In this document: one piece after another, positions 45,304 to 62,502 of the stretch
Layout: each line of letters starts with the position of its first letter
Numbering within the stretch: position 1 is the stretch's first letter
Assembly: GCA_016929065.1 (NCBI GenBank)
Contig: JAFGJO010000042.1
Coordinates: forward strand, 16,543 to 80,542
DNA: 64,000 nt
From: Spirochaetales bacterium
GTDB lineage: Bacteria; Spirochaetota; Spirochaetia; SZUA-6; RPPD01
Reading direction: 5' to 3'
Translations under genes and position numbers: made by a program
Notes under the pieces: generated by a model
Told to the model about the DNA's origin: nothing
The model's input: the letters and a program-made list of their open reading frames with translations, nothing else
The model's database searches: none

Positions 45304-45451
45304 TCAGCTTTAATACACACTTCCCTGCCTCTTCTCCTGTATATAAAACACCTCAAATCCAAAAAAGCTACACTGAATTTTGGCCTCTGCTTGCCTTAAC
45401 TGATGTTTACCATTATTATTGAAACATCATTTTCAAAACCAGGAAAACTCT

Positions 45452-48331
45452 ATGAACAAAATCATTATACAAGGCGCCCGTGAGCACAACCTTAAAAATA
45501 TCGACATTACTCTGCCGAGAGACAAATTTATTGTGATCTCGGGACTTTCCGGTTCCGGGAAATCATCTCTCGCATTCGATACAATTTTCGCAGAAGGCCA
45601 GCGGAGGTATGTCGAATCGCTTTCCGCGTATGCACGGCAATTTCTGGGCAGGCTCGACAAGCCCGATGTCGACTATATCGAGGGGCTTTCCCCTGCCATT
45701 TCGATTGAGCAAAAAACCACCCATAAAAATCCCCGTTCGACGGTTGGAACGGTCACCGAGATTTATGATTACCTCCGGTTATTATTCGCACGGATCGGTA
45801 CGCCCCATTGCCCCACGTGCGGCAAGGAAATCAAAGAGCAGTCAATCGACCAGATCATCGATACCATTCTGGCGTATCCACAGAACAGTAAAATAATCAT
45901 CTGCGCCCCAATCGTCCGGGGCAGAAAGGGCGAGCACCAGAAGATTTTCGAGGATGCAAAAAAAGGCGGATTCGCACGGGTGCGGGTAAACGGGGAAATT
46001 CGATCGCTCGAAGAACAAATACCCCTGGAAAAAAACAAAAAGCACTCAATCGAAATTGTTGTCGACCGTCTCACCGTACATGGCGAAAACCGTCAACGGC
46101 TCGCGGAATCGGTTGAAACCGCATTGGAACTCGCCGGCGGCAAGCTGACTGTCATCACCATTGACGGAACAAAAGAGACCGAGGAGTTTTTCTCGCAGCT
46201 TTTTTCCTGTTCAGAATGCGGAGTGAGCATCCCTGAACTTCAGCCGAGGCTTTTTTCGTTCAATAACCCCTACGGTGCCTGCGAGACCTGCTCCGGGCTG
46301 GGAGTTACCCTGGAGTTCGATCCCGGCCTGGTCATTCCCGATCCCTCGCTTTCATTTAATGAGGGAGGGATTGCGCCGTATAATCCCGAAGCAGCCTGGT
46401 ATAAAAGCCGGGTGGGTTCGCTGGCAAAGCATTACGGATTCACCCTTGATACCCCGTTTGATCAGCTGCCGAAACAGGTTCTGAAAAACATTCTGCACGG
46501 CACCAAAGATGCAATTGATTTTACCTATACCAACCGCGACAAACGGGGGAAGTGGGAATATACCTCATCGTTTATCGGGATCCTCCCCGATTTAAAACGC
46601 CGGTATTTCGAGTCTACCTCGGAGGGAGTCAAGGAATGGCTGGAGCAATACATGCGTCAGGCCGAATGTCCGGCGTGTTCCGGCAAGCGCCTGCGGCCCG
46701 AAAGCCTGGGTGTCACAGTATCCAATAAAAACATCTGGGATGTGACGGTGCAGTCAGTGGGTGACGCAGCTCGTTTTTTCGATACACTCAAACTGAGCGA
46801 AACCCAGGCCAAAATTGCCTCTCAAATTCTCAAGGAAATTAAAGCGCGGCTCACTTTCATGATCAACGTGGGGCTCGATTACCTCACCCTTGAACGAAAA
46901 GCGGCAACACTCTCCGGGGGCGAGGCGCAGCGGATCCGGCTTGCAACGCAGATCGGTTCACAGCTGGTCGGAGTGCTGTATATTCTGGATGAGCCGACAA
47001 TCGGGCTGCATCAGAGGGACAACCAGCGGCTCATTGACACGCTCAAACACTTGAGAGATATCGGGAACACACTCATTGTTGTGGAACATGATGAACAGAC
47101 ACTCCGCACGGCGGACTATATTGTGGACCTGGGACCCGGCGCCGGCGTGCATGGCGGGCATGTAGTCGCCGCCGGCACCTATAATGAAATACTTGCGAAC
47201 AAGAAATCGGTCACTGGCCAGTATTTGTCCGGCGCGATTGCCATTGAACAGCGGCCGCAGCGGCGCCCGGTTGATGACAATAAAAAAATCATGCTCCTCG
47301 GCGCAAAGGAACATAATCTTAAAAATATCGATGTCGGGTTTCCACTTGGTGTGTTCACGGTGATTACCGGGGTGTCGGGATCGGGGAAGTCGACCCTGCT
47401 CTCGGACCTGTTGTACCCGGCGCTTTCAAACAAAATCATGCGCTCCCATCACCGCGAGGGCAGTTACGGGAAAATTACCGGGACAAAACATGTCGACAAG
47501 GTGATCAATATCGACCAGAGCCCCATCGGAAGAACCCCGCGCTCAAACCCCGCGACCTACGTGGGGCTGTTCACGCCCATTCGTGAACTGTTTGCAAAAC
47601 TGCCGGAATCACGGGCGCGCGGCTACAAGGCCGGCCGATTCTCGTTTAATGTACGCGGCGGACGGTGCGAACACTGTGAAGGCGACGGTACACTCCGCAT
47701 CGAAATGCACTTTTTATCGGATGTGCATATTACCTGCGACAATTGCAAAGGCAAACGCTATAACCGTGAAACACTTGAAATCCGGTACAAAGGAAAGAAC
47801 ATTCACGATGTGCTGGAAATGACCGTCGAGGAAGCGCATGGCTTTTTTGATAAAATACCAATGATCGAACGCAAACTCCGGGTGCTCCGCGATGTTGGAC
47901 TGGATTATGTCAAACTCGGCCAGTCAGCGCTCACCTTATCGGGCGGGGAAGCACAAAGGGTAAAACTGGCTCTTGAACTGTCCAAGAGGAGCACCGGCCA
48001 GACGCTCTACATACTGGACGAGCCGACTACCGGGCTTCATTTTGCCGACGTTAAAAAACTGATTGAGGTACTGCAGCTCCTGGTAAACCAGGGGAACACC
48101 ATTATCCTTATCGAACACAACCTGGACGTGATCATGCAGGCAGACTATATCATTGACCTGGGGCCGGAAGGCGGCGACCGCGGCGGGCAGGTTATCTGTG
48201 CCGGCACTCCCGAGCAGGTGATGGAATGTAAAGACTCATACACCGGGCATTATCTGAAAGAGGCTTTGGCACAGAACGGGAATAAAAAACCGGCTACGAA
48301 AAAAGCAAAGAAAATGCAAAAGAGAAAATAG
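45452..48331 (+). CDS. uvrA: Excinuclease ABC subunit A
   Basis: It has two ABC ATPase modules with zinc-finger insertions ([15 protein letters not shown] ... LSGGEAQRI). Confidence 0.95.
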
Positions 48332-48410
48332 ATACATTTTTATATAAACCCTACCCGCTCTTTGTCAATGGTGATACCCTATAATTGATGCGAAATTCAC
48401 AAAAATGTGG

Positions 48411-48439
48411 TTGATACAGGTCAGGGTATGTTTTACAAT
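48411..48439 (+). promoter_or_regulatory. Putative sigma70-type promoter (TTGATA-N17-TACAAT) for the island operon
   Basis: It lies ~95 nt upstream of the ATPase gene ATG. Confidence 0.3.
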
Positions 48440-48533
48440 TGTCATGGCATAATGTAAAGTATAAAACCTTCTATATATAACATTTTCCAGGCTGGAAATA
48501 GTCGGTAAGAATATATCGTTGCAAGGGGTTATT

Positions 48534-51500
48534 ATGAATACAGTCTTACAAGCCCTTCATGATTCCTGTGTTCCGCGAAAGAGCGTCTTTGACAAATCCC
48601 GTAAGGACGTAGTCCTTCACCTGGGAGACCTCCTAACAGGAAAACTCAAGGAAAAAGATGCGGAGCTTTTCTTTGATGAGAACTTTGTCACCAAGGGCAT
48701 GAAGTCGTTGATTGAGAAGACTTTCCAGCGCCTTTGCGGGAAGAAAGACCAGGCTGCGACGTTTCTGCTCTCACAGGCCATGGGCGGCGGCAAGACACAC
48801 TCAATGCTCGCCCTGGGATTGCTTGCAAAATATCCGGCTGCGAGGGCGAAATTATGGAAAGAATCAAAGCTCGACGACATGGCGATCCGGGTGATCGGCT
48901 TTGACGGCAGGGAATCAGACTACCCATTCGGGATCTGGGGCTCTATTGCCGAGCAGTTGGGAAAAAAGGATCTGTTCAAGAACCTCTACACTCCCCTTCA
49001 GGCGCCCGGGATCACCTCATGGATCAATCTCCTTCAAGGCGAGCCGACGGTGATCCTGCTCGATGAGCTTCCGCCATACTTTATGAGCGCCATGTCCAAA
49101 TCCGTGGGCGACAGCAACCTGGCCGCGGTGACAACGACCGCAATTTCCAACCTGATGGTCGCAGCCAACAAAACGGAACTTAATAACATCGTTATTGTCA
49201 TTTCAGACCTGTCGGCAACTGCATATTCCAACCTGGGCACCGGGGTCATGGCGGCCCTGGATAACCTGGAAAAAGAAACAAACCGGAGCGCTCTTGTCAT
49301 TGAACCGGTGGCGACACAGGGCGACGAGGTTTTTCACATTCTGAAGACACGGCTTTTTGAAAAATTGCCGGAAGAAAAGATAAAAACCGATGTTGCGGCC
49401 GCGTACGCGGACGCGGTGAAGAAGGCAAAACAGATGGAGCTCACCGCTGCGACGCCGGAAAGTTTTGCAGCCGAGATTAAAGATTCATATCCCTTTCATT
49501 TTTCCCTGCGCGATTTATACGGCCGCTTCAAGGAAAATCCCAATTTTCAGCAGACGCGCGGGCTTTTGCGCATGATGCGCTCGATTATTGCCAATATATG
49601 GGAAAGCGGCAAGGCAAAAAAACTGTATCTAGTACATCCGTATGACATCGATTTGAATGACGGCGACATTTTTACGGAGTTCGACCGCATCAATTCAAGT
49701 CTCTCGGAAGGAGTACGCACCGACATCGCGAACAGCGGCCATTCGCACGCCGAGGAGCGCGACGCGGAATTGAAGACCACAGACGCAACGGACGCGGCAA
49801 AACTCATCTATGTGTCCTCGCTTTCCACAGCACAGAAGGCGGTTATCGGCCTGCGGGATACGGAGATTATTGCCTGGTTGTGCGCGCCCGGCCGCAGTAT
49901 GGAGCGGGTGTTGAGCGACGTGCTTGAGGTCCTGCCAAATCGGGCATGGTATCTGCATCTGTCGCTTGACGGAAGGTTGTACTTTAAAAACATCCAGAAC
50001 CTGGCGGCCAGGCTTTTCGGGATGGTGAGCACTTCCACCAAGGAAAACAAGATCCAGGAATTGCGCAAATACCTGCAATCCCTTTTTGAGCCCAAAATGA
50101 AGGATTTGTATCAGGATATCAAGGTGCTATCGCCGATAGACGACATCACCATCACGCAAGAGAAAACCACGCTCATTGTTACTGACCCTTGGCCTGACGC
50201 GAAATCCGACCAGCCGCTTAATCCGGAGTGGGTCAAGTTCCACAACGATCAGACCTGTCAGAACCGGATGTTTTTTTTGACCGGCGACCGCAACACCATG
50301 GACGAGGTGCTCAAGAACGCCGCGTACCTCAAGGCCGTGGAGGTCGTACTTGCAGAGCAGGAGCAGGAGGGCGTGTCGCCCAAGGACCCGCAGGCGAGCG
50401 AGGCCCGGCGGAGCAAGGATAAATACCAGGTACAGCTGCGCAGCGCGGTCCAGCAGACCTTTTCCACTATCGTATACCCTGCGCGCGGAAAACTGCGGCA
50501 TGAACACATCAATTTTAATTTTGACAACAACCAGTATGACGCGGAGGCACAGATCAGGCGCACACTGGCTGACAACCAGAAGTTCTCGCTGGATGCTGCC
50601 AATGAGACCTGGATCAAAAAGGCGGAGGAACGCCTGTTCGACAACCAGAATCCGGTGCCCTGGAACGAGGTGAAAAAACGCGCGGCGGTGAAGCCGGAAT
50701 GGCAATTCCACCACCCGGGCCTTTTGGAGGACATCCGGGAATACGCAATAAAAACCGGGCGCTGGCGGGCGGAAGGCAACATGGTGCGCCGGGGGCCGTT
50801 TGAAAAGGAACCGACCGGCGTGAAGGTCGCGCTGAAAAGTTTTGATTCTGATACCGGCGATGCGATTCTGCAGATAATCCCTGAAAACGGCAACAAAGTG
50901 TATTACGAAATCGGCGATGCAAAGCCGACCACATCGTCACTGATCGTTACTGATTTTTCAAGTTTTCGCACCAAAGAGCTCAAGTTAACCTTTCTCTGCG
51001 TGGACGAGGGACCGGACCCGCGGCCAACGGGGAATCCTTACGTATGGAAAAATACAATTCAAATCAAATACCGGATTTACTCCCAAGGCAAGGAATATTA
51101 TGCACAGGTTGTCGCAAATCCGCCGGTACCGCTCCGCTATACTACGGAAGGCCGTGATCCGCTGGAACACGGCGTACCCTATGCCGGGGACATTCTCCTG
51201 CCGCCGGAGTGCACCATGCTTCAGGTTGTGGGCGAAAAAGACGGGGTGATGAGCAGAGTAGAGACGTTCAGGATAGACCGCAAGCCTGGCGGGGAAATAG
51301 ATCCGGACAAGCCCGCGGTCTGGTACTGCGGCAGGCATTTCCAGCACAAGCCGGGGGCGGAGGCGTTTCAGCTCCTGGACCGCGCAAAGGAACTTCGGGC
51401 AAACCTTTCATACGTGCTCGTCAATTCGGTCTCTTCGGATACGGAAGAGGCGCTCATGTACACACTACCCAAAAATCATCTGCGATCTGCTGAGGAAGTT

Positions 51501-51653
51501 GGCAATATTTGCAACAATCTGCAGGAGATGATCCCGGACGCGCATCTGACATTGAGCATCCATGAGATACACTTCACGCGAGGCCAGGACCTGCTGGACT
51601 GGATGCAAAAGGACCGGCTTTCCATTGACGTTGCCAAAGAGGTGAAACAGTGA
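48534..51653 (+). CDS. Large P-loop ATPase of the DUF499/BrxC-PglY-like type (phage-defence associated)
   Basis: It has a Walker A motif (MGGGKTHS) near residue 90 and a DE(L) Walker B motif (ILLDELPPYF), and is ~1040 aa. It is GC-rich relative to the flanks. Confidence 0.65.
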   Translation: MNTVLQALHDSCVPRKSVFDKSRKDVVLHLGDLLTGKLKEKDAELFFDENFVTKGMKSLIEKTFQRLCGKKDQAATFLLSQAMGGGKTHSMLALGLLAKYPAARAKLWKESKLDDMAIRVIGFDGRESDYPFGIWGSIAEQLGKKDLFKNLYTPLQAPGITSWINLLQGEPTVILLDELPPYFMSAMSKSVGDSNLAAVTTTAISNLMVAANKTELNNIVIVISDLSATAYSNLGTGVMAALDNLEKETNRSALVIEPVATQGDEVFHILKTRLFEKLPEEKIKTDVAAAYADAVKKAKQMELTAATPESFAAEIKDSYPFHFSLRDLYGRFKENPNFQQTRGLLRMMRSIIANIWESGKAKKLYLVHPYDIDLNDGDIFTEFDRINSSLSEGVRTDIANSGHSHAEERDAELKTTDATDAAKLIYVSSLSTAQKAVIGLRDTEIIAWLCAPGRSMERVLSDVLEVLPNRAWYLHLSLDGRLYFKNIQNLAARLFGMVSTSTKENKIQELRKYLQSLFEPKMKDLYQDIKVLSPIDDITITQEKTTLIVTDPWPDAKSDQPLNPEWVKFHNDQTCQNRMFFLTGDRNTMDEVLKNAAYLKAVEVVLAEQEQEGVSPKDPQASEARRSKDKYQVQLRSAVQQTFSTIVYPARGKLRHEHINFNFDNNQYDAEAQIRRTLADNQKFSLDAANETWIKKAEERLFDNQNPVPWNEVKKRAAVKPEWQFHHPGLLEDIREYAIKTGRWRAEGNMVRRGPFEKEPTGVKVALKSFDSDTGDAILQIIPENGNKVYYEIGDAKPTTSSLIVTDFSSFRTKELKLTFLCVDEGPDPRPTGNPYVWKNTIQIKYRIYSQGKEYYAQVVANPPVPLRYTTEGRDPLEHGVPYAGDILLPPECTMLQVVGEKDGVMSRVETFRIDRKPGGEIDPDKPAVWYCGRHFQHKPGAEAFQLLDRAKELRANLSYVLVNSVSSDTEEALMYTLPKNHLRSAEEVGNICNNLQEMIPDAHLTLSIHEIHFTRGQDLLDWMQKDRLSIDVAKEVKQ

Positions 51654-52219
51654 GCGAAGTGCTGGGATTCGGCTTTTTCCCGGAGCGCACAACGCACTGC
51701 TTTGTCGTGCACCTGCCGAATACGGCAAAGGGAGAAATCGCCATTACAGAAGAGTTTAAGTGGGCGCTTGAACAGGAATCGTTTGAAAAACATGGTCTGC
51801 AAAATCCCGACCTGAAAGTACTTCTTTCCATGGAACTCTGGAAAGAGATCGCGGACGAGGCCAAGGCCGAGTTTAACCGCAGGCTCATCCGGCATGGCGT
51901 AAAGTCCGGCAAGTGGCCGGCGAAAGGCAAGGTGCCGGTTGACCGCAACCTTGGAAAGGAACTGGTACTCCTGGCCTGGGCCGTGGAGGACGCGGACCCC
52001 GTGCTCATCCCCAATGCGGTACGCAACTGGTTGGGCTTGAGCCCGGAGGAGCGCTGGTGGCTTTTCACCATGACCAACGCGGCCACGGGCCAGGCTTTGG
52101 GCGGCCGCAACAAGGGCTGGCGTAAAGCCGTACGCTTTGCGCTCACGGAAAACCCCATCGCCGATTCAGTCATAAAAAAACGCGTGAGCGATTTTGAATT
52201 GCCGCTTTTTCGGGAGTAA
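51650..52219 (+). CDS. Small conserved protein, translationally coupled (GTGA overlap) between the ATPase and the MTase
   Basis: It is 189 aa with no catalytic motif I can see. Confidence 0.5.
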   Translation: MSEVLGFGFFPERTTHCFVVHLPNTAKGEIAITEEFKWALEQESFEKHGLQNPDLKVLLSMELWKEIADEAKAEFNRRLIRHGVKSGKWPAKGKVPVDRNLGKELVLLAWAVEDADPVLIPNAVRNWLGLSPEERWWLFTMTNAATGQALGGRNKGWRKAVRFALTENPIADSVIKKRVSDFELPLFRE

Positions 52220-52224
52220 TAACT

Positions 52225-55101
52225 TTGCCGCATAAACCACTCATTGAAACACAATTCCCCCTGGCGATCTTGAGCGCCGAAAGCTACAAGGAGCGCAAGG
52301 CCAATTTGGGACAGACGCTCACAGGTCTTGGAAAATGGTGGGGCAGAAAGCCGCTCATACTAGTACGCGCGGTCATCCTGGGTCTTCTCATGCCCGCATC
52401 CGACAATCCGGAAAAGGACCGCGAGGTATTCCTGCGCGTGCTCACCATGGACGAGGACGGTCTGTGGAAACGCAAGAGCAAAAAAATGAGCGCGGCCCAA
52501 GTTGCCGGACAATTGAGCCCGCAGGAGAGCACAGGAATTATTGAAATAAACGGCGACAAGCCCGCCTGGAAACGCGGTCTGGACGCAACGGACAAACTGC
52601 GGCTTGAGAAACTCGCCTTTAACCGCCTGGATTATGAGGAAAAGCTTACGCTTTGCGACCGGCCGGAGCAGATTGACGGGCCCAGTGAAGAAAGCTGGCA
52701 GGAAATAAACCGGCATTTGGGTACTTGCGCCGCAACCCTGCAGGAACTCTTCGCCGAGCTTTCCCGGAAAGCATTTGGCCGACTCGCGCGAGTTGGTGAT
52801 GTGTTTTGCGGGGGCGGCTCCATTCCGTTTGAAGCCGCCCGGCTGGGGCTTGAAGCCTACGGAAGCGACTTGAATCCCGTGGCCGCGCTGTTAACCTGGG
52901 CCGCAATCAATTTGATCGGCGGTGGGAAAGAGGTACAGGAGCAGGTGCGCAGTGCGCAGAAGGAAGCTTGGGAAGCGGCGGACAAACAAATCACGGAATG
53001 GGGGATCGAACACGACAGTGCGGGGAATCGTTCAGACGCCTATCTCTATTGCATAGAAGTAAAAAGTCCGGCCACTGGTCTGTGGGTGCCTTTGGCGCCT
53101 AGTTGGGTAATTGGAGAGAGAAGCAAAGTCATCGCGGTTTTGAAAAAAAATGAAAAGCGGCACGGATATGATATCAATATTGTAACCGGGGCAACAGACA
53201 AGCAGATGAAGGAAGCCAAAACCGGTACGGTGCAGGACGGTGAACTGGTCTGCCCGGAAACAGGCAAGCGCTACAGCATTGCCAGCCTGCGCGGGGATCG
53301 CCGGGATGAAGGGGAATCCGTTTACGGCCTGCGGCTTTGGGAAAACGAGGACCTTGTCCCGCGGCCTGAAGACACATTTCAGGAACGGCTTTACTGTGTG
53401 CGCTGGGTCACTCCGGAAGGAGAGCGGCTCTATAAAAGTGTGACGCAGGAGGATGAGGCGCGGGAACAAAAGGTGCTTGCGCTTTTGAAAGAACGGTTTT
53501 CCGAATGGCAGGAGAAGGGGTATATTCCGTCAAAACCAATTACACGCGGTGGCGACAAAACAGAAGAACCGATCCGGACACGCGGCTGGACGCACTGGCA
53601 CCATTTGTTTAATCCAAGGCAATTGTTGGTACATGGGTTGATATCAAGTATTAATACTTCAAGAGATAAAATAAATAGGGTATTCCTTCTGTTGTGGATT
53701 GGTAGCCTATCAAATCGTGATTCAAGAATTGTTGGCTGGGTTCCTTCATATGGAGTTGAGACTACTGATCAAGTATTTACAAACCAGGCATTAAATACAA
53801 AATTTAACTGGGCGGCAAGAGGTTTACTAGGATATAAAACAGTCACTAATATTAGGGCCAATTATAATGTAAACATTAACTCCAGTAAAATTGAACCACA
53901 AGATGCTCGAGTAGCTCAAAGTGATAATCACTTATGGATAACAGACCCACCATATGCTGATGCTATAAATTATCATGAGATTCTCGATTTTTTCCTCGCC
54001 TGGTATGAAAAACACCTACCCAAGTTATTTCCTGACTGGTATACGGACAGCCGTCCGGCTTTGGCAGTCAAGGGTACAGATGAGGATTTTAAGCACAGTA
54101 TGGTTGGAATTTACGCCAATCTCGCGGCTCACATGCCTGACGACGGCCTGCAGGTTGTTATGTTCACCCACCAAGATGCGGGCGTCTGGGCGGACCTGGG
54201 CATGATCCTCTGGGCCGCTGGACTTAAAGTGACTACTGCTTGGACGGTTGTTACAGAAACAGTATCTGCATCTGATTCCGGCAACTTTGTCCAAGGCACT
54301 GTACTTATGGTTTTACGCAAGCGCTTGGAAAGTAAAACCGTGTTTCTGGACGAGCTCTACCCGCTTGTGGACGACGAGGTGAAAAAACAGCTTGACCACA
54401 TGCACCGTGTGGACGACCAAATTCGCTCCCAGTTCGGAGACACGGACTTCCAGCTCGGCGCCTATGCCGCTGCCCTCCGTGTGCTCACAAGCTACGCGGA
54501 TATCGAAGGCCAGGATATCAAGCATGAGCTTTTCCGCACACGGACCAAGAATGAAAAATCCCCCTTTGAAAATATTATTGACCGCGCTGTCTCCATCGCC
54601 GCCGGCTACCTTATTCCGCGCGGTATTAGCCAGCAGGTTTGGCGCAATCTTGACAACATGGAGCGGCTGTATCTGCGTGGCCTGGAACTGGAACGCCATG
54701 GCGAATTGCGGCAAGGCGCTTACCAGGAACTCGCGCGCGGGTTCGGCGTGCAGGAATACACCTTTATGCTTGCAGACAAGGTAGCCAACCAGGCGAGATT
54801 CAAGACGGCAATCGAGTTCAAGCGGACGCAAATGGGCGAGGGCGACTGGGGCGGCACCCTGTTGCGCCATGTTTTATTCGCCATTCATGAGGCCGTGCGT
54901 GCGGAAAACCCGCGTGAGGGTTTTAATTACCTCAAGAACGCGCGGACGGACTATTGGGCCAGGCGAGAGGACATTCAGGAAATATTCAAGTATTTGGAGC
55001 AGGCAGCCACGCATAGTCACCTTGCGCATTGGAAACAGGACAGCGCGGCGGCGCAATTGGTACGCGGACTCGTCGCGAACGATTATGGCGGGAGCGGGTA
55101 A
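52225..55101 (+). CDS. N6-adenine DNA methyltransferase, 958 aa, DUF1156-like architecture
   Basis: It has an N-terminal KWWGRKP-type region, an AdoMet motif I (VFCGGGSIPFEA...DLNPVA) and the catalytic motif IV DPPY at about residue 570. Confidence 0.75.
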   Translation: MPHKPLIETQFPLAILSAESYKERKANLGQTLTGLGKWWGRKPLILVRAVILGLLMPASDNPEKDREVFLRVLTMDEDGLWKRKSKKMSAAQVAGQLSPQESTGIIEINGDKPAWKRGLDATDKLRLEKLAFNRLDYEEKLTLCDRPEQIDGPSEESWQEINRHLGTCAATLQELFAELSRKAFGRLARVGDVFCGGGSIPFEAARLGLEAYGSDLNPVAALLTWAAINLIGGGKEVQEQVRSAQKEAWEAADKQITEWGIEHDSAGNRSDAYLYCIEVKSPATGLWVPLAPSWVIGERSKVIAVLKKNEKRHGYDINIVTGATDKQMKEAKTGTVQDGELVCPETGKRYSIASLRGDRRDEGESVYGLRLWENEDLVPRPEDTFQERLYCVRWVTPEGERLYKSVTQEDEAREQKVLALLKERFSEWQEKGYIPSKPITRGGDKTEEPIRTRGWTHWHHLFNPRQLLVHGLISSINTSRDKINRVFLLLWIGSLSNRDSRIVGWVPSYGVETTDQVFTNQALNTKFNWAARGLLGYKTVTNIRANYNVNINSSKIEPQDARVAQSDNHLWITDPPYADAINYHEILDFFLAWYEKHLPKLFPDWYTDSRPALAVKGTDEDFKHSMVGIYANLAAHMPDDGLQVVMFTHQDAGVWADLGMILWAAGLKVTTAWTVVTETVSASDSGNFVQGTVLMVLRKRLESKTVFLDELYPLVDDEVKKQLDHMHRVDDQIRSQFGDTDFQLGAYAAALRVLTSYADIEGQDIKHELFRTRTKNEKSPFENIIDRAVSIAAGYLIPRGISQQVWRNLDNMERLYLRGLELERHGELRQGAYQELARGFGVQEYTFMLADKVANQARFKTAIEFKRTQMGEGDWGGTLLRHVLFAIHEAVRAENPREGFNYLKNARTDYWARREDIQEIFKYLEQAATHSHLAHWKQDSAAAQLVRGLVANDYGGSG

Positions 55102-55115
55102 AAGCCGAGCTTTGA

Positions 55116-55171
55116 CCAAAATCAAATTATTGGCAATAATTGCCTAAAATTGCCGATAATTTGATTTTAGG
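55116..55171. promoter_or_regulatory. 22 bp inverted repeat (2 mismatches) spanning the abiEi start codon; putative AbiEi autoregulatory operator
   Basis: The arms are ccaaaatcaaattattggcaat and attgccgataatttgattttagg, separated by an 11 nt spacer that contains the ATG. Confidence 0.5.
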
Positions 55172-55910
55172 AGAAACGACCATAAAGGACTATAGGAAAA
55201 AGATAGCGCTTTACCTCAATTCCCATAAGACGCTTAGTACTGCGGAGGCCGCCCATATTTTCCGGCAGGACGAGGTGGATTTACCAGATGCGACGATCAA
55301 TTGGCGGCTCCATGAAATGGAACAGAACGGAAGCCTTCAGCGAATCGGCCGTGGTAAATACCGTCTTCCGGACAAGCCGGTGTTTAACCCGGAAACAAAG
55401 TCATTTCAAGAAATGGCCGCTTTTATTCGCGGGCAATTCCCGCTGGTGAAGTATTGCCTTTGGGATACTGAGATAGTGCGTGCGCTTGCGCACCATATTC
55501 CCTCGCGCGCGTTTGTGATCGTGGAAGTGGAAAAAGACCCGCTTGAGGAGGTGTACGACAAGCTCAAAGACAAGTATGATTATGTGTTCCTGGCCAAAGA
55601 CTATAATCAGGCATCCGGTTTTCTCAAGAAAGATGTGTCCGCTATTTTTATAAAGCCGCTATTATCAGAAGCTCCCGTACGGATTCTCAATGGCGTCCCC
55701 GTACCAGAACTGGAAAAAATACTTGTGGACACCCATCGCGACATGGACCTGTTCAGCTTCCTGGAGGGAAAAGAATGGAACAACCTCTGGGAAAACGCAT
55801 TGGCGCGGTACACGGTCAATACGACGAGGCTCCTGCGCTACGCCGCGCGGCGTGGGCAACGAAAGTTTTTCTACAGTCTGTTTCATCCTGGAACGGTAAA
55901 AAATGATTGA
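55140..55910 (+). CDS. AbiEi-like antitoxin/transcriptional regulator (type IV TA, COG5340-like)
   Basis: It has an N-terminal winged HTH (LSTAEAAHIF...LQRIGRGKYRL), is ~250 aa, and overlaps the downstream gene by 8 bp. Confidence 0.6.
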   Translation: MPKIADNLILGETTIKDYRKKIALYLNSHKTLSTAEAAHIFRQDEVDLPDATINWRLHEMEQNGSLQRIGRGKYRLPDKPVFNPETKSFQEMAAFIRGQFPLVKYCLWDTEIVRALAHHIPSRAFVIVEVEKDPLEEVYDKLKDKYDYVFLAKDYNQASGFLKKDVSAIFIKPLLSEAPVRILNGVPVPELEKILVDTHRDMDLFSFLEGKEWNNLWENALARYTVNTTRLLRYAARRGQRKFFYSLFHPGTVKND

Positions 55911-56973
55911 TGTAAAAAAGCTAGATCAACAATGGTTTTCCTTAACAAGCAGAGAAATACATGGCGACCCGCTATTGCTTGAAAAGGTGACGAAAGCACT
56001 TTTGCTGGTTGAAAAACTCGCACATCTGGGTCTCAAATTCATCTTCAAGGGCGGCAGCGCGCTCATGTTGCTTTTGGAAAAGACCGCCAGGTTTTCGATT
56101 GATGTGGACATACTCCTGCCGCAAAAGGCGGTCAATATGGTCCTGTCCCCGGTCTTTGACGGCATTGTTTCATCAGGAATCTTTACCCGCTACGAGCCGA
56201 GCCCACGAAAAAAGACCGGAGTACTTAAAAAGGAGCATTTTCGGTTTTTTTATAATTCCTTGGTGCTGGCGGGCGGTGCTGAAGACAACATTATACTTGA
56301 TATCGTTTACGAAGACGGCCTTTACAATACAATCATTTCTCTCCCCGTGACCCTCCCGTTTCTTCCGGTTTCCGGCAAACCAGTGACCGTGTCAGTGCCC
56401 GATCTGGAAAATCTTCTTGGCGACAAACTCACCGCGTTTGCCCCGAATACGGCGGGCATTGCCTATAGAAGAAACAACGTCAGCATGTCCCTGGAAATCA
56501 TCAAGCAGTTGTATGACATCGGGATTTTGTTTAAATTTGTCAACAAACCTGAACATGTCCGTGATGCCTTTGAAAATTTTGCGCGCAAACAGATACAATA
56601 CCGGGGAAGACAATTTTCCGTTGATGATATTTATGAGGACATTTTTCAGACTGCTTTGTGTTTTTCCACAAAGGGTGAATTCGGAATCGGAAACTATGGC
56701 GAACTGCAAGATGGGATAAAAAGGGTCAAAAGCTATATATTTTCAGAGAATTTCAGCATACCCAAGGGTGTAACGAATGCAAGCATTGCCGCCTACCTGG
56801 CGATGATCCTGCGCCGGAAGACCGGGAAAATTGAAAAATATGGCGAACCCGGGTCTGTCACCAGTCTGGAAATCTCTGAAAAAGAATTCAAGATGCTCAA
56901 CAAGCTAAAGAAAGGCAATCCCGAAGCATTTTATTATTGGTACAGGGCGATAGAAGCAAGGAGCAGCCGATGA
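55903..56973 (+). CDS. AbiEii-like nucleotidyltransferase toxin (DUF1814 family)
   Basis: It has the NTase-fold signature FKGGSALMLL...RFSIDVDIL. Confidence 0.7.
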   Translation: MIDVKKLDQQWFSLTSREIHGDPLLLEKVTKALLLVEKLAHLGLKFIFKGGSALMLLLEKTARFSIDVDILLPQKAVNMVLSPVFDGIVSSGIFTRYEPSPRKKTGVLKKEHFRFFYNSLVLAGGAEDNIILDIVYEDGLYNTIISLPVTLPFLPVSGKPVTVSVPDLENLLGDKLTAFAPNTAGIAYRRNNVSMSLEIIKQLYDIGILFKFVNKPEHVRDAFENFARKQIQYRGRQFSVDDIYEDIFQTALCFSTKGEFGIGNYGELQDGIKRVKSYIFSENFSIPKGVTNASIAAYLAMILRRKTGKIEKYGEPGSVTSLEISEKEFKMLNKLKKGNPEAFYYWYRAIEARSSR

Positions 56974-59738
56974 TCAACCGTTTCAGTTTTCATAAAGGTA
57001 AAAAGGGGACGCGCTTTCTTGCAGACCGGCTTCAGAACGCGCGCTCCTATGACCGAATCGCGGGATTTTTCAATAGCTCACTTTTGGAATTTGCGGGCGA
57101 GGCGTTGGAAACAGTGAGTGGTAAAATCCGCATCATATGCAACTCGGAATTGCGGCCGGAAGATGTTGCCGAAGCCCAGAAAGCGGAGCAGGCCCAGAAA
57201 ACCAGTTTCTTCAAGCTCGATCCGGAGCAAGTGAGCAAGAACGCCAGGGACAGACTCACACGCCTGCATCGCCTGCTCTCTAATACGGAAAAAGCGATGT
57301 TGGAAATACGAGTTTTACCGAACGAGGCTTTCGGTCTCATCCACGGCAAAGCCGGAGTCATCTGCTTCAAGGACGGCAGTCGGACGAGCTTTCTTGGATC
57401 AGCCAATGAAACCTTCGCCGCCTGGAATCTCAACTATGAACTCGTCTGGGAGGATGACACTGTGGAGGCATGCGACTGGGTGCAGTCGGAGTTCGACCGG
57501 CTCTGGACGCACCCGCAGGCAGTGCCGCTTGCGCAGGCGGTCGTGAAGGAAATCGAGCGGCTGGTGGATCGCCGCGAACTGAATCTTGATAACTGGAAAA
57601 AACAGGCAGCGCCCGCGGGTGTGCTCGTGGAAGCACCGGTGTACCGGGAAGAGTTTGGGTTGTGGCCGCATCAGCGTTATTTTATTGACCTCGCCTGGAA
57701 AACGCATCTGGCTTTTGGAGCGCGCTATGTGCTCGCGGACCAGGTTGGCCTGGGGAAAACCGTTCAACTCGGTATGGTGGCGCAGCTTGTCGCGCTTGCC
57801 GGTAATCTGCCCGTGCTGGTGCTGTTGCCAAAGACGCTCATGGAACAGTGGCAGACCGAGTTGTGGGATTTACTGGAGGTCCCTTCTGCGCGTTGGGCGG
57901 GCAGACACTGGATAGATGAAACAGGTTATGAGCACTCCCCCGAAGGGCAGAATCCACTTCTGCATTGCCCGTGCAAGATCGGTCTTGTATCACAGGGGCT
58001 TGTCACCCGGGGGAGCGCGCAGGTAAAGGCGCTTTTAGCCCGAGAGTGGGAATGTGTCCTTGTTGACGAGGCGCACCGCGCCCGCAGGAAAAAGCTGCCC
58101 AAACCGGATGAACGCGGTCCGGCGATCGGCAATGTTGATGCGGACTGCAATAAACTGTACGGATTTCTTTTCAAGATTGCATCACGGACGCGTTCAATGC
58201 TTTTGTCTACTGCCACACCCGTGCAGATGCATCCGATTGAGGCTTGGGATATGTTACGTATGCTTGCGGAGGCAAACGATCATGTATTGGGGAGCACAGG
58301 GAGTAATTGGCGGAAACCTGAACTGGCGCTTCCATATTTATTACAAGAACAGGAAATACCGGAAGATGTACAGACGCTCTGGGAGTGGCTGCGGAATCCA
58401 TTCCCTCCAAAGTGGGAAGAGATGAATTTTGCATATCTAAGGCTGCAGCTCGGTGTGGATGATGCCCAGGCGGTTATCGCAGAGCAGTTCAGGGACTATA
58501 ACAAGCTTACGCCGGACTTGAAGACAAGAATGGATCAAAGCATGAAAAATCTATTCGGGGATCATCATCCGTTTTTGCGGTTTATCGTGCGGCGTACCCG
58601 GAAATATCTGGAAGACACAATTGATCCCGCCACCAATGAACCGTATTTAAACCGGATTGAAGTAGAGCTCATTGATGACCAGCCCGTGATTCTGGGCAGT
58701 TATTTGAAGCAGGGCTATCAGGCCGCGGAGAAGTTCTGTAAACTGCTCGCCCGCAGGGTGCGGGCCGCCGGCTTTTTTAAAACACTCCTGTTGCGACGAA
58801 TCGGAAGTTCCATAAAGGCGGGTCTTAATACCGTGAATATGATGCTGTCAAGCTGGGATATTGCAGAGCCCGGAGAGGATGAAGAGGATATCGAAGATTT
58901 ATTTGAAGATGATGACACCTCGGATGAACGGTTCTCGGAAAATACACGTTCCGAGCTCAAACAGCTTACCCGCGAGGAAACGGATATCCTTCGCGATTGT
59001 CAGCGAGCCCTTGAACAAGGCCTAAGCCAGCGTGAAGGTGCAGATCCCAAGCGGGATGTCGTCATCGAGTTTCTAAAAAACAAACGATGGGCTGAAGACG
59101 GTTGTATACTGTTTTCACAATATTTTGATACCGCGAAATGGATTGGTGAGGAGACAGTCCGACTGTTCCCGGATTCACCGGTTGGACTCTATGCAGGAGG
59201 CGGAAAATCAGGGATCTGGGAGAATGGCCAGTTTCTGAAAAAGTCCCGCGAGGAAATAAAAGCCAAGGTTAGAAGCGGAGAAATCAAAATTCTTGCGGGA
59301 ACAGATGCCGCGAGCGAAGGTTTGAACCTGCAGGCTTTGGGAACGCTCATCAACGTGGACTTACCATGGAATCCGACGCGACTTGAGCAGCGCAAGGGGC
59401 GAATACAGCGTATTGGACAATTTCGCGATAAAATAAAAGTGCTTAACTTGCGGTATAAAGATTCAGTCGAGGACAAGGTACATCAGGTTCTGTCGGGACG
59501 TCTGCAGGACATCCATGAATTGTTCGGTCAGATTCCGGACGTGCTCAAGGATGTCTGGGTGGAAATCGCGCTTGATGATGTTGAAGCCGCTAAAAAGCTT
59601 ATCGAGGATCTGCCCAAAATGAATCCGTTCGACAACCGTTATTCAAAACTGGAAATGATTTCCGGCTGGGACACCTGGAACAAAGTGCTTAATAAACAGG
59701 ATAAGTTATACAAACTAAGGGAAGGTTGGGGGCAATAA
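56970..59738 (+). CDS. PLD-family nuclease domain fused to a SNF2/SWI2-type helicase
   Basis: The N-terminus has an HKD motif (HGKAGVICFKDGSRTSFLGSANET). The helicase has motif I (GLGKTVQ), a DEAH box (LVDEAHRAR) and C-terminal motif VI (QRKGRIQRIGQ). Confidence 0.8.
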   Translation: MINRFSFHKGKKGTRFLADRLQNARSYDRIAGFFNSSLLEFAGEALETVSGKIRIICNSELRPEDVAEAQKAEQAQKTSFFKLDPEQVSKNARDRLTRLHRLLSNTEKAMLEIRVLPNEAFGLIHGKAGVICFKDGSRTSFLGSANETFAAWNLNYELVWEDDTVEACDWVQSEFDRLWTHPQAVPLAQAVVKEIERLVDRRELNLDNWKKQAAPAGVLVEAPVYREEFGLWPHQRYFIDLAWKTHLAFGARYVLADQVGLGKTVQLGMVAQLVALAGNLPVLVLLPKTLMEQWQTELWDLLEVPSARWAGRHWIDETGYEHSPEGQNPLLHCPCKIGLVSQGLVTRGSAQVKALLAREWECVLVDEAHRARRKKLPKPDERGPAIGNVDADCNKLYGFLFKIASRTRSMLLSTATPVQMHPIEAWDMLRMLAEANDHVLGSTGSNWRKPELALPYLLQEQEIPEDVQTLWEWLRNPFPPKWEEMNFAYLRLQLGVDDAQAVIAEQFRDYNKLTPDLKTRMDQSMKNLFGDHHPFLRFIVRRTRKYLEDTIDPATNEPYLNRIEVELIDDQPVILGSYLKQGYQAAEKFCKLLARRVRAAGFFKTLLLRRIGSSIKAGLNTVNMMLSSWDIAEPGEDEEDIEDLFEDDDTSDERFSENTRSELKQLTREETDILRDCQRALEQGLSQREGADPKRDVVIEFLKNKRWAEDGCILFSQYFDTAKWIGEETVRLFPDSPVGLYAGGGKSGIWENGQFLKKSREEIKAKVRSGEIKILAGTDAASEGLNLQALGTLINVDLPWNPTRLEQRKGRIQRIGQFRDKIKVLNLRYKDSVEDKVHQVLSGRLQDIHELFGQIPDVLKDVWVEIALDDVEAAKKLIEDLPKMNPFDNRYSKLEMISGWDTWNKVLNKQDKLYKLREGWGQ

Positions 59739-60003
59739 ACCCGGGTATTCACACGCATGAAATCACTTGCCGCTCTGGTTGCCGTACTGATAATTACCAT
59801 TCTGCTCGCATTCACTGTTGCCGTTCTTATATCAGGGTGCTGACAGACAACCAGTTTGTCAGCACCCTGCTAATTCTATAGACCGCACAGCAGTATATAC
59901 CAGCGAAAATACTCCTCAATAATAATGCTTGCCTGCAATTTTTTGTAAATAACCTGATTTCTTTCACATTATTTGATATATTTATCCTAAAAAGGACAAT
60001 GAC

Positions 60004-60651
60004 ATGTTCGCAGGATTGTCAAACACAGGAGTCTCAGCGTTTTCTTCCGGGCTGTCACCGCGTAGTAATTACCTTCAGGGAATTGACGGCGCAGTAAAGG
60101 CGCATGAGAAGGCGCATCTGCTCGCACTCGGCGGGTTTGCGAAGGGCGGTATTTCCTATGACTACCTGCTCACCTCAGACGGCCACAAATACGCAGTCGG
60201 CGGCTCGGTGGGGGTTGATATTTCACCGGTCCCTGACGACCCCAAGGCAACCATCCGGAAAATGCGGACCGTGCGGGCCGCAGCCTTAAGCCCCACGCAC
60301 CCCTCCGCCGCTGATACCGGGATTGCCTCAAAGACCCTGCAGATTGAGATGCAGGCCCATCAGCAGCTGAAAAAGGAACAGCTGGACAGCAGCGCATCAA
60401 TTGGTATTGCAGCGGCCACATCAGCTGATATACCGGCAAATTCAAAGAAGGCCTCAACTCCAGCCAGTTTCGCGGGATCACCCGAAACAATTATCGACAA
60501 GGCAAACGCAGTCCAGACTGAAATTCTGATTTCCGGCGACCGTTCGGCGAGAGCAATGCAGCGGCTCTTTCAGTCGTATATCATGGAAATGAAGGCGCAG
60601 AAAAAACTAAGAGCTGAGGACTCCCTGCCGCAAACCGATATTTTAATCTGA
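60004..60651 (+). CDS. Hypothetical protein with an HExxH metalloprotease-like motif
   Basis: It contains an AHEKAH motif. The coding sequence is GC-rich and lies at the distal edge of the island. Confidence 0.45.
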   Translation: MFAGLSNTGVSAFSSGLSPRSNYLQGIDGAVKAHEKAHLLALGGFAKGGISYDYLLTSDGHKYAVGGSVGVDISPVPDDPKATIRKMRTVRAAALSPTHPSAADTGIASKTLQIEMQAHQQLKKEQLDSSASIGIAAATSADIPANSKKASTPASFAGSPETIIDKANAVQTEILISGDRSARAMQRLFQSYIMEMKAQKKLRAEDSLPQTDILI

Positions 60652-60995
60652 ACTCAAATTTCTGTCTTCCATCTTACTTATTCAGAATTTTATCCAGTTC
60701 AAAGTGCGCTTTTTCCGATAATTTTTCATGCACTGAGGACCGCTTCGGTATCAGTACTGCCCGCAATTTCAATATTCTTTTTTTGTGTCTTTCGTGATTT
60801 TAGTGGTATTTTTTTTAAAATCCGCATCAGCCATAACGGATATTCTACAGAAAAGAAAATAATGGTCAAACCACAATGAATAGTTTATAAGACAGTACTT
60901 ATAGAATACCCTTGATTTTTTAAAACTATGGAATACATTGATAGGAGAGCCTGACAATCCATAAAGCATGGATACAGCTGTAAAAGGAGCAGACA

Positions 60996-61802
60996 ATGAC
61001 AATTTTACCCTGTACAACCGTTCAAATAATTAATAGAACGGGAAATTTCATTCTTAAAATATTTTTATTGTTATCGGTATTCATTTTTTTTACCGGCTGT
61101 CTGAATGTGTCAGCGCAGCCCGGCCAGCCGGTTCCGGTGAAAAACAACAGCAAAATTTGGGAAGAAAAAGATTATGCACGTGTCTCACTTTCAAATTTCA
61201 GAAAGGAACCCCTGTTTCTGGAAACAATCAATTTTACCAGTATTGATTACCCCCGGCTCCATGCGTCGATTTTTTATGCGACCAATGAAATCCGTGTCAG
61301 CCACAAACTGAAAGAACTCGGCTATAACGCCAATCTTGAAATTGCTGCATACAATCACTCAAAACGGATGGTAGAAAAAAACTTTTTCAGCCATCAGGAT
61401 TCAACCGACCGCACACGCTACAATCCCGGCGACCGGGCGAAACTCGCGGGGGTAACCAATCCTTCGATCGCTGAAAATATCGCAGAGACATTTGCCATTC
61501 AGTACAAGGCAGGCACATCGGTATATCCGCTCTCCACCCCTGGAGAGTTCAGCTACACGAACAGGGGCAAACCCATTCCCCCGCATACCTACTTGAGTTT
61601 TGCTGATGAAGTGCTGACCATGTGGATGAACTCAAGCGGACACCGCGCGAATATTTTATCCACAAACGGGCTTGAGCTGGGTTGCGGTGCATATTTTTAC
61701 CAGGACAAATCCTTTTACCAGATGGCGAAATTCAAGGCAACACAAAATTTTCAGTGGTACAAAAAGGTGATTCCCGGGGAAGTATCCGACCCCACACCAT
61801 AG
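60996..61802 (+). CDS. CAP/SCP/PR1-domain lipoprotein (YkwD-like)
   Basis: It has a lipobox (FFTGC) and CAP motifs (HSKRMVEKNFFSH, GENIA, HRANIL). Confidence 0.7.
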   Translation: MTILPCTTVQIINRTGNFILKIFLLLSVFIFFTGCLNVSAQPGQPVPVKNNSKIWEEKDYARVSLSNFRKEPLFLETINFTSIDYPRLHASIFYATNEIRVSHKLKELGYNANLEIAAYNHSKRMVEKNFFSHQDSTDRTRYNPGDRAKLAGVTNPSIAENIAETFAIQYKAGTSVYPLSTPGEFSYTNRGKPIPPHTYLSFADEVLTMWMNSSGHRANILSTNGLELGCGAYFYQDKSFYQMAKFKATQNFQWYKKVIPGEVSDPTP

Positions 61803-61833
61803 GCATCGCATGACAATTTTTTTGGGTCTTTTT

Positions 61834-62502
61834 TCACGCAGCTCTTCTGTGTGAAAAAAGTTTTCCCAATTGCAAAGCAACCAGATAGAAAAAAGGCCCC
61901 CAAAACACCGGGTATCCGGCTTTGACAAGATCCGGCAGTTCCTGGTGATAGTTGACATAGGGGATGACAGAGAAACAGAACCAGGACAAATACCAGGCAC
62001 CGACAAATCCCATCGGAATAAATAAAATTGTAAACCATGATATTTTTACCAGCATTATTCGGATCAGGAGCACAGTGATCACGGTCGAGCCGATGAGAGG
62101 AACCAATATCACACAGACAAGCCCTCCGCAGAAGTCAAGAAGATGATAGCTCACAAAACCGGTCACACCGGTCCAGTAAAATAATGCGGAAATATCGAAC
62201 ATGGCACAGTCATAATACACAGCGAATAACACAGAATTACAGACAAGAAAAACAAGTACCTTCACCCAATGTTTTTTAATACCCTCAAACGGGACCAGAA
62301 AAAAAATAACCGCGATATTGAAAAGGATAACAATTACAACACCAAAGGAATACGACCAGGAAAGCCATGCCAACCCCTTCCAGCCGGAAATAAACCCAAT
62401 CATGAAAGCCCAGGCTATAAACAGGAAAAATGAGACCGCAAGAATAAATACAGGTTTCATCCAATTATTTTTCAACACCGGTAAAAGTTGATCAGTCTTC
62501 AT
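61834..62502 (-). CDS. Polytopic membrane protein, hypothetical
   Basis: It has six or more TM segments. Confidence 0.5.
   Translation of the reverse strand: MKTDQLLPVLKNNWMKPVFILAVSFFLFIAWAFMIGFISGWKGLAWLSWSYSFGVVIVILFNIAVIFFLVPFEGIKKHWVKVLVFLVCNSVLFAVYYDCAMFDISALFYWTGVTGFVSYHLLDFCGGLVCVILVPLIGSTVITVLLIRIMLVKISWFTILFIPMGFVGAWYLSWFCFSVIPYVNYHQELPDLVKAGYPVFWGPFFYLVALQLGKLFSHRRAA

Follow-up and report, generated by a model that had tools for sequence, protein, structure and literature searches.

An AT-rich, hypervariable block in the DUF1156 methyltransferase of a BREX-related locus as a probable exchangeable specificity module

The 64,000-nt stretch of Spirochaetales DNA analysed here (the window; contig JAFGJO010000042.1 of assembly GCA_016929065.1) carries an operon with the gene set of a Type-2 BREX (bacteriophage exclusion)-related system, and one of its genes, which encodes a DUF1156-family N6-adenine DNA methyltransferase, is GC-rich over most of its length and is interrupted by a sharply AT-rich tract that ends over its catalytic DPPY motif. 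Comparison with several hundred homologs makes it likely that this tract corresponds to a hypervariable, exchangeable module of the enzyme, one that, judging from its position, would set the DNA specificity of the system. The genes of the operon are the following, in coordinates of the window:

48519-51653, + strand: DUF499 AAA+ ATPase (PADLOC DUF499, E=6.3e-180; Pfam DUF499, 3.5e-24)
51650-52219, + strand: DUF3780 protein (Pfam DUF3780, E=5.8e-48), the signature of the Type-2 BREX-related subtype
52225-55101, + strand: DUF1156 N6-adenine DNA methyltransferase gene, 958 amino acids (aa), the modification subunit (PADLOC DUF1156_MTase, E=6.6e-286; Pfam DUF1156 at aa 10-70)
55140-56973, + strand: AbiEi/AbiEii toxin-antitoxin pair, nested between methyltransferase and helicase (PADLOC AbiEi, 2e-67; AbiEii, 2.2e-112)
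56937-59738, + strand: PLD(HKD)-Swi2/Snf2 helicase-nuclease (PADLOC PLD_Helicase, E=4.6e-232; PLDc_2 at aa 30-190, then SNF2-rel_dom and Helicase_C)

The Type-2 BREX-related subtype, which is related to "Hma", is defined in a recent paper (Nucleic Acids Research (NAR) 2026, PMC12839542), where DUF3780 is found in 98% of Type-2 BREX-related loci. Its constituents, i.e., a DUF499 ATPase, DUF3780, a DUF1156 N6-methyltransferase and an HKD(PLD)-Swi2/Snf2 helicase, all occur here. This gene content identifies the locus as a Type-2 BREX-related defence system into which an AbiE pair is nested, and anti-phage activity and methylation-based discrimination of self are predicted for it; the PLD-Snf2 helicase-nuclease is presumed to be its restriction effector. 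The operon (46000-59700) has a GC content of 0.52 vs 0.44 in positions 1-45000 of the window, and GC content at third codon positions (GC3) is 0.52-0.66 in operon genes and 0.40-0.53 in long open reading frames (ORFs) elsewhere in the window. Relatives of the system are richer in GC than this operon (GC3 of 0.71 for the gene of L001, the locus of the closest homolog, and ~0.8 in Rectinema), and the system probably came from a lineage of higher GC content, which makes its AT-rich block all the more conspicuous.

An NCBI protein from a Spirochaetales metagenome-assembled genome (MAG) matches the methyltransferase at 100% identity. The methyltransferase gene contains these elements:

52795-52833 (aa 191-203), + strand: S-adenosylmethionine (AdoMet)-binding motif I, GDVFCGGGSIPFE, with invariant G191, D192, G196, G198, S199, P201, F202 and E203
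53581-53640 (aa 453-472), + strand: left conserved anchor, RGWTHWHHLFNPRQLLVHGL, of invariant or near-invariant columns; probable left crossover zone
53635-53931 (aa 471-569), + strand: hypervariable block with a mean pairwise identity of 0.17-0.44; allele-like module and candidate specificity determinant
53641-53991 (codons 473-589), + strand: AT-rich tract, GC 0.34 and GC3 0.21, delimited by a two-breakpoint likelihood fit to third positions
53776-53796 (aa 518-524), + strand: FxNQALN anchor within the block; F518 and N524 invariant or nearly so by alignment, N520, Q521, A522 and L523 at least 90% conserved
53932-53979 (aa 570-585), + strand: right conserved anchor, LWITDPPYADAINYHE, with motif IV (DPPY); invariant columns, encoded here by AT-rich synonymous codons

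In a 150-sequence alignment, the core of motif I (DVFCGGGS, aa 192-199) and motif IV (DPPY, aa 574-577) are both invariant. The protein therefore has the FxGxG-type motif I and the catalytic D/N-P-P-Y/F/W motif of amino-methyltransferases, and is predicted to methylate adenine-N6 within a DNA motif. The N-terminal, AdoMet-binding part of the D12/Dam profile (PF02086) gives a weak, sub-threshold match to the window protein at aa 188-233 and matches above threshold in the relatives P0388 and P0410, the match being confined to the first ~65 positions of the profile.

A reading made from the letters of the window (the sequence-only reading) had described an AT-rich patch inside this GC-rich gene, and sliding GC and GC3 profiles, which are far from uniform, bear it out. 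In 200-nt windows GC content is 0.55-0.60 over most of the gene, 0.35 at 53600-53999 and 0.53 by 54000-54199; over codons ~461-580, GC3 in 30-codon windows is 0.17-0.33, down from 0.5-0.77, with GC content at second positions (GC2) almost unchanged. The extent given for the patch was too generous: in place of ~520 bp at 53600-54120, the tract measures ~350-410 bp (roughly 53600-54010), since positions 54013-54120 have a GC content of 0.47, and it covers residues ~460/473-589 instead of 460-630. The two-breakpoint fit, with a log-likelihood ratio of 35.5 vs a maximum of 11.4 among 200 permutations, places the boundaries within support intervals of codons 460-475 and 582-596. Outside the tract the gene has a GC content of 0.55 and a GC3 of 0.62. 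Nor is codon usage within the tract host-like, as had been suggested, because its GC3 lies well under that of the host genes of the window (0.40-0.53) and also under that of the operon genes (0.52-0.66). The signal is synonymous, because the same amino acids recoded with the codon usage of the operon would give a GC content of 0.49 and a GC3 of 0.61 in place of the observed 0.34 and 0.21. An internal promoter was considered as a cause of the patch and is unsupported: a promoter and terminator scan returned 4 promoter-like sites vs 2.6 ± 1.8 expected, none of them specific to the patch.

The AT-rich tract coincides with the least conserved block of the family (aa ~470-569). Among 192 homologs, aa 481-560 form the least conserved long stretch of the protein (mean pairwise identity 0.17-0.44 per 20-residue bin), and the block is bracketed on the left by the invariant motif RGWTHWHHLFNPRQLL (R453, G454, W455, W458, H459, H460, L461, P464, R465, L467 and L468) and on the right by WITDPPYADA (W571, T573, D574, P575, P576, Y577, A578, D579 and A580, invariant or nearly so). 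Because FxNQALN is kept inside so variable a segment, all alleles of the block share one scaffold; its retained positions (W505, F518, N520-N524, R532, D560 and R562) are all present in the window protein. In composition, the block is enriched 2.7-fold in Asn, as well as in Cys, Ser, Phe and Thr, and is depleted of Glu, Pro and Arg.

The position of the window gene within its family is that of a mosaic. Its closest homolog, P0002 (locus L001), is 79-87% identical to it in the flanking segments (81% in the backbone) vs 43% over aa 460-590 and 36% over aa 470-565, and the best matches to the block are other proteins (P0007 at ~61%, P0003 at ~55-60% and P0052 at ~54%). In a codon alignment with L001, the two sequences are near-identical through aa 472, collapse thereafter and recover from L570. 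Because homology with the nearest relative stops right after the left anchor, this anchor is the probable left crossover zone. At the other end, the window gene writes the DPPY region as ATA ACA GAC CCA CCA TAT GCT vs GTC ACC GAT CCG CCT TAC GCG in L001, and since these are AT-rich synonymous codons, the right junction of the tract lies at or just beyond the motif. It is thus the edge of the tract that overlaps the DPPY motif, which is conserved together with the catalytic core, and the exchange of a catalytic module that the sequence-only reading had entertained does not hold.

Searches for a source of the block were made in several collections. A HMMER search with aa 451-596 against 1.84 billion representative proteins reached 50-51% identity at best and no donor, a scan of Joint Genome Institute (JGI) metagenomes with the block peptide gave two matching loci only (58-59% identity), and viral contigs held only 24 members of the family, none of them close in the block. 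Because viral contigs contain so few members, and none close, phages are not evidently the reservoir of the block. A protein search with the patch alone gave only fragments of at most 254 aa, the source protein itself not among them, and is uninformative as to the donor. With a best match anywhere of about 60% amino-acid identity, the block allele of the window is rare, and the low-GC donor that the sequence-only reading had invoked did not appear in these collections.

If the block diverged along with the remainder of the protein, its identity between any two homologs would track that of the backbone. Across 303 non-redundant homologs (45,753 pairs), the Spearman correlation between block and backbone identity is 0.07, vs 0.60 for a similarly variable control region (aa 85-130). 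In the 280 pairs whose backbones are 90-97% identical, the median identity is 0.36 in the block and 0.88 in the control. Block identities cluster at 0.2-0.45 and reach 0.8 or more in only 49 of the 45,753 pairs. Since block identity is both independent of the backbone and clustered at low values, the block exists as discrete alleles and not as the product of gradual divergence.

Exchange of the segment can be followed directly in relatives. In L088 (P0417) and L089 (P0430), which come from different samples, the third positions of conserved codons agree at ~50% along the backbone and at 100% over aa ~430-655; by the same measure, L090 (P0020) and L085 (P0030) reach 0.83-1.0 over aa ~448-685 vs 0.45-0.65 elsewhere. 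These exchanged segments are larger than the AT-rich block and contain the whole of it, and therefore the dip in GC travels with the block and is not made by the junctions. In a trio of Rectinema genes (L084, L005 and L085), nucleotide identity is ~90% or ~75-88% outside the block and ~0.45 between the two motifs, and GC3 goes from ~0.8 to ~0.2 in the block with sharp edges at both motifs; the three genes carry three different alleles. The module swap proposed in the sequence-only reading is upheld by this convergence of mosaic flanks in the window gene, family-wide uncoupling of the block and exchange in relatives. Whereas segment replacement is seen as such in these relatives, for the window gene we infer it from its mosaic relationships, which make it likely that the module was replaced at some point in the lineage of this gene.

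L084 and L085 both occur in assembly GCA_054641635.1, a Rectinema subterraneum MAG that appears to hold two complete DUF499/DUF3780/DUF1156/PLD-Snf2 systems. It is mainly the hypervariable block that sets the two methyltransferases apart, and this genome may therefore have two specificities side by side.

The low GC content of the block is not peculiar to the window gene. Among 82 genes from one-genome-per-species contigs, in which the region aligned to aa 465-570 was compared with the rest of the gene, GC3 is lower in the block in 77 (mean difference in GC3, or dGC3, of -0.18; Wilcoxon p=2e-14). In the same genes, GC content at first positions (GC1) is lower by 0.13 in the block and GC2 is unchanged. 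By 30-residue bins, the dip is confined to aa 486-575 (-0.16 to -0.20). A separate set of 23 viral-contig loci and one metagenome locus replicates the effect (21 of 24 negative, p=1.6e-5). That variable regions might be AT-rich in general is rejected by the equally variable aa 96-125, where the difference is only -0.04. The dip deepens with the GC content of the gene, following the regression GC3(block) = 0.06 + 0.57 x GC3(rest) (r=0.73), with mean dGC3 by class of GC3 in the rest of the gene as follows:

GC3 of rest <0.35 (n=11): -0.007, maximum +0.06
GC3 of rest 0.35-0.5: -0.17
GC3 of rest 0.5-0.65: -0.19
GC3 of rest 0.65-0.8: -0.24
GC3 of rest >0.8: -0.32

Among GC-rich genes, GC-ending codons are less frequent inside the block for every one of the 18 degenerate amino acids. 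Conserved codons have a GC3 of 0.47 inside the block vs 0.76 outside, and variable codons 0.48 vs 0.73; because conserved and variable codons shift alike, the dip is a regional effect at the level of DNA, and not one of residue content or fast turnover. Distant relatives of the window allele display it on backbones of differing composition:

Window: GC3 of block 0.25, of rest 0.61
L002 (distant relative of the window allele): block 0.29, rest 0.55
L003 (distant relative of the window allele): block 0.58, rest 0.87
L087 (distant relative of the window allele): block 0.40, rest 0.86

Low synonymous GC is, then, a standing property of the block in almost all members of the family that are not already AT-rich, and the dip is not the dated footprint of one transfer. 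A weak trend (dGC3 of -0.155 in genes that share their block with a relative of 75-96% backbone identity vs -0.29 otherwise; p=0.05, with non-independent samples) points to some amelioration of block composition after exchange. Candidate causes of the bias, which the data do not separate, are a mobile pool of AT-rich cassettes that undergo partial amelioration and the exclusion of a multi-allelic block from homologous exchange and GC-biased conversion.

Alpha-class N6-adenine methyltransferases hold their target-recognition domain (TRD) between the AdoMet-binding half of the protein and motif IV. In the window protein the order is motif I (aa 191-203), block (aa 471-569) and motif IV (aa 574-577), with the AdoMet-binding half, including motifs I and II, at aa 191-220; the segment, which the sequence-only reading had placed next to the putative TRD, thus lies where alpha-class enzymes carry theirs. 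The weak D12/Dam match is in keeping with such an arrangement in general. From this position, we would expect the block to set the DNA motif that is methylated. According to the model that we favor, the ~100 residues (aa ~471-569) between RGWTHWHHLFNPRQLL and WITDPPYADA come in discrete alleles, any two of which are near-identical or else share only ~35% identity, regardless of similarity in the rest of the protein; homologous recombination would replace a segment that spans the block, and crossovers in or beyond the conserved flanks would bring about new combinations of block and backbone.

The C-terminal domain of the DUF499 ATPase does not co-switch with the block (rho 0.03 over 32 close pairs; e.g., L073 and L082 have a block identity of 0.40 and a DUF499 C-terminal identity of 0.81), and DUF3780 does not co-vary with it (rho -0.07 over 61 close pairs). 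As the ATPase C-terminus and DUF3780 both vary independently of the block, the block may well set the specificity of the whole system, and if it does, the methyltransferase would be the sole specificity-bearing subunit among those compared (the DUF499 C-terminus and DUF3780). As a separate matter, this C-terminal domain (51279-51563, aa ~920-1015) is the least conserved part of the ATPase (mean pairwise identity 0.17-0.27); it diverges in step with its own backbone and has no GC3 dip.

Several points weigh against assigning specificity to the block. Its link to DNA recognition is a prediction from its position. PMC12839542 places the TRD in another segment, a Zn-finger insert that follows core strand 2. 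An AlphaFold model based on 150 sequences, which has an overall pLDDT (predicted local distance difference test) of 82.6, is least confident in the block (pLDDT 36-68 over aa 500-580); an earlier model from 31 sequences was poor throughout, with a pLDDT of 63. Fold searches gave only generic methyltransferase cores of the S-adenosylmethionine type, and a sequence search of the PDB with the family profile gave no match. As for exchange, the examples in relatives come from metagenome assemblies, the isolate L005 excepted, and because no donor or near-identical allele of the window block was found (best match ~60%), the exchange event in the window gene itself is deduced and not observed. Finally, among the partner subunits, the tests of co-variation covered the DUF499 C-terminus and DUF3780.

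One alternative, implied by the sequence-only reading, is a single recent import, in which a piece of ~400 bp came from a much lower-GC donor whose base composition it still reflects. The patch is indeed poorer in GC3 (0.21) than either its gene (0.62) or the host genes (0.40-0.53), the nearest backbone relative has a different block, and the deeper dips where the block is unshared with a relative of 75-96% backbone identity (-0.29 vs -0.155, at p=0.05 with non-independent samples) fit some amelioration. Such an event cannot account for the same dip at the same place in 77/82 and 21/24 homologs from many phyla, which removes AT-richness as the mark of a recent low-GC donor. Random transfer among hosts should also yield GC-rich blocks in AT-rich hosts, and these never occur (mean dGC3 -0.007, maximum +0.06). 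Moreover, in the exchanged segments of relatives the dip sits inside a larger transferred piece, the dip persists (about -0.26 to -0.46) in distant relatives of the window allele whose backbones have GC3 of 0.55, 0.86 and 0.87, and the 1.84 billion representative proteins and JGI metagenomes supplied no donor; we therefore regard a single import as improbable. The proposal that the block is AT-rich because an Asn/Ile/Lys/Tyr-rich conserved sequence must be encoded is the least tenable of all and can be taken as refuted. The sequence-only reading had allowed that homologs might share the pattern through such a constraint, and they do share it, but for another reason: despite the enrichment in Asn and the lower GC1, GC2 is unchanged, operon codon usage would give these residues a GC content of 0.49 and not 0.34, all 18 degenerate amino acids shift away from GC-ending codons inside the block, and no part of the protein is less conserved than the block. 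A cluster of rare codons kept across the family, which would slow translation so that a large inserted domain folds before the catalytic half is made, would explain why the dip is specific in position and conserved across phyla, given that AT-ending codons are rare in GC-rich hosts. Its sign should then reverse in AT-rich hosts, which the 11 genes with GC3 <0.35 do not bear out (mean dGC3 -0.007), and the dip is sharply co-extensive with the exchangeable module, so that a pause of this kind seems very improbable.

Two further explanations were considered. Diversifying selection on an arms-race surface, such as the binding site of a phage inhibitor or a contact with a partner protein, would also be expected to generate horizontal exchange and a diversity that resembles alleles; the methyltransferase of BREX is a known target of phage inhibitors, and the published TRD assignment lies elsewhere in the protein. 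We consider it unlikely that the block is such a surface in place of a DNA reader, because it does not co-vary with the DUF499 C-terminus or DUF3780, lies exactly where alpha-type enzymes have their TRD, keeps an internal scaffold (FxNQALN, W505, R532, D560 and R562), and has a composition, depleted of Glu and enriched in Asn, Ser and Thr, that would suit a DNA-facing surface. Since the window comes from a MAG and multi-allelic regions are prone to chimeric assembly, the contig might also combine alleles of two strains; however, the reading frame is intact with all conserved anchor residues in place, and the same architecture recurs in dozens of independent assemblies and in isolate genomes such as that of Rectinema subterraneum SURF-ANA1 (L005), which leaves an artefact hardly credible. 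Mechanisms that diversify a gene from within its own genome were rejected as well. For a diversity-generating retroelement target, there is no direct repeat of the block in 44000-64000 and no reverse transcriptase among the annotated neighbours; for an invertible hsdS-type shufflon, inverted repeats around the block are lacking and the flanking motifs have no further copy in 44000-64000.

The closest precedent for an exchangeable block of this kind, by analogy, is recognition-domain exchange in Type III mod and Type I hsdS genes. The recognition domains of modA are 29-38% identical between alleles, are replaced en bloc and have a lower GC content than their flanks (PMC3311624). As in the present family, modA of Neisseria and Haemophilus has conserved 5' and 3' parts around a central variable domain, with alleles that are ~30-38% identical to one another and highly conserved within, and that recombine en bloc at lower GC (PMC3311624). 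The DUF1156 family likewise presents a variable domain bracketed by invariant motifs, discrete alleles and, in relatives, en-bloc transfer. The two differ in that Type III Mod is of the beta class, whereas the DUF1156 enzyme belongs to another family with motif I before motif IV; in that the DUF1156 system has no phase-variable repeats and has, in place of Res, a DUF499 ATPase, DUF3780 and a PLD-Snf2 helicase as partners; and in that the specificity of modA has been measured, whereas for the DUF1156 family it is a matter of prediction. In published cases of TRD shuffling in Type I hsdS and other restriction-modification genes, including 'domain movement' (PMC3467074, PMC3575425), modules move by way of conserved flanks and alter specificity while the catalytic machinery is unchanged. 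As described there, the hsdS cases involve a separate specificity subunit or movement within a genome; the DUF1156 module lies inside the catalytic polypeptide, directly upstream of motif IV, and no spare cassettes or repeats are nearby (44000-64000 searched).

Among alpha-class enzymes, Dam/D12 has the same order of motif I, variable region and motif IV (DPPY). The DUF1156 enzyme differs from Dam/D12 in the ~370 residues between motifs I and IV, in its added N-terminal DUF1156 domain and in about 250 C-terminal helical residues. The Type-2 BREX-related/'Hma' systems of PMC12839542 have the same gene set, with accessory effectors nested in the locus; that paper assigns the TRD to a ~250-residue Zn-finger insert after core strand 2, which is different from the block, and term searches of its text gave no mention of an exchangeable, hypervariable block ahead of DPPY. 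In our alignments the region of the Zn-finger insert (aa ~260-405) is moderately conserved (0.42-0.73), and it is aa 470-569 that are allele-like. The phenomenon is therefore of the same kind as known recognition-domain exchange, in a family for which the cited literature does not describe it.

The variability and the composition of the block might also have a common basis, a possibility that we put forward only tentatively: the ~100-residue block would be the true specificity determinant, and its AT-richness the maintained state of a multi-allelic cassette. If so, the specificity determinant of BREX-related methyltransferases and, by homology, of Type-3 BREX would be the block before DPPY and not the Zn-finger insert, and the block would by itself decide what the whole system targets. 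Once its alleles had diverged too far for recombination within it, the block would be shut out of homologous exchange and GC-biased conversion, and would then drift to the AT-biased equilibrium of mutation. The regression given above and the lack of a dip in AT-rich hosts fit drift of this kind. Were this true, a sharp intragenic dip in GC3 between invariant motifs would serve as a detector, from sequence only, of specificity modules in defence genes.

BREX-related DUF499 systems have been reported in thousands of prokaryotic taxa, and cultured carriers met in this analysis include Neomoorella thermoacetica, Thermoclostridium stercorarium DSM 2910, Tepidanaerobacter acetatoxydans, Methanococcoides vulcani SLH33, Caloramator australicus RC3, Ruminiclostridium sufflavum DSM 19573 and Rectinema subterraneum SURF-ANA1. 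As a candidate reader of the DNA motif that these systems mark, an allele-like block exchanged by recombination is now placed within a stretch of ~300 bp between two invariant motifs, and its alleles offer a way to type BREX-related systems. The dip, which stands across phyla, also corrects the tempting inference from low GC to a recent foreign donor. Because the same puzzle has long been noted for the recognition domains of Type I and Type III systems, the DUF1156 family provides a large and broad data set for explanations of it.

The methyltransferase gene contains a second, smaller AT-rich patch:

54211-54303 (aa 663-693), + strand: second AT-rich patch, GC3 0.33-0.40, which holds the loop TETVSASDSGNFVQG

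The GC3 dip at this second patch is not family-wide. Within the loop TETVSASDSGNFVQG (54253-54297), the window protein has S683, D684 and F688, residues peculiar to it at positions that are otherwise conserved: among 303 homologs, 297 carry L/I/F/M at the first of these, 299 carry K/R at the second and 300 carry Y at the third, and D684 is the sole instance in the set. A compensated frameshift was rejected as the origin of the odd loop, there being no frameshift at 54253-54297, and the loop (aa 676-690) does not co-vary with the hypervariable block. It could be a co-adapted DNA-contact loop or reflect local decay.

Other features of the locus are of less direct concern. Compared with L001, the DUF499 ATPase is 83% identical, and the helicase is 78% identical overall and 40-62% identical over aa ~620-700 (window ~58797-59040), a second variable segment of the system in which GC3 is somewhat low in both the window and the L001 genes. 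Upstream of the operon lies a UvrA-like ORF (45419-48331) with a GC3 of 0.60, above that of host genes; it matches the PADLOC model 'mad3' (7.5e-105) in addition to UvrA domains, and may be a housekeeping uvrA. The intergenic gap before DUF499 (48332-48518) is very AT-rich (GC 0.31-0.37). A scan of 40-64 kb for tRNA genes found none.

The AbiEi/AbiEii pair shares only 50-52% identity with its positional counterpart in L001, vs 75-86% for the core genes. A 20-nt inverted repeat (55118-55137 / 55149-55168, 95%) overlaps the promoter-like TTGACC-17-AATAAT (region 55112-55168) and is probably the AbiEi operator. Accessory genes differ among L001, L003, L084, L085, L088 and L089 at two operon slots, one between DUF3780 and the methyltransferase and the other between the methyltransferase and the helicase, with cargo in relatives that includes Abi_C, MNT+HEPN, an AAA_15/SMC-like ATPase, an HNH protein, a Schlafen/AlbA_2 protein and Mrr. 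Because the accessory genes of relatives vary at these same two slots, the methyltransferase gene is flanked by two cargo hotspots.

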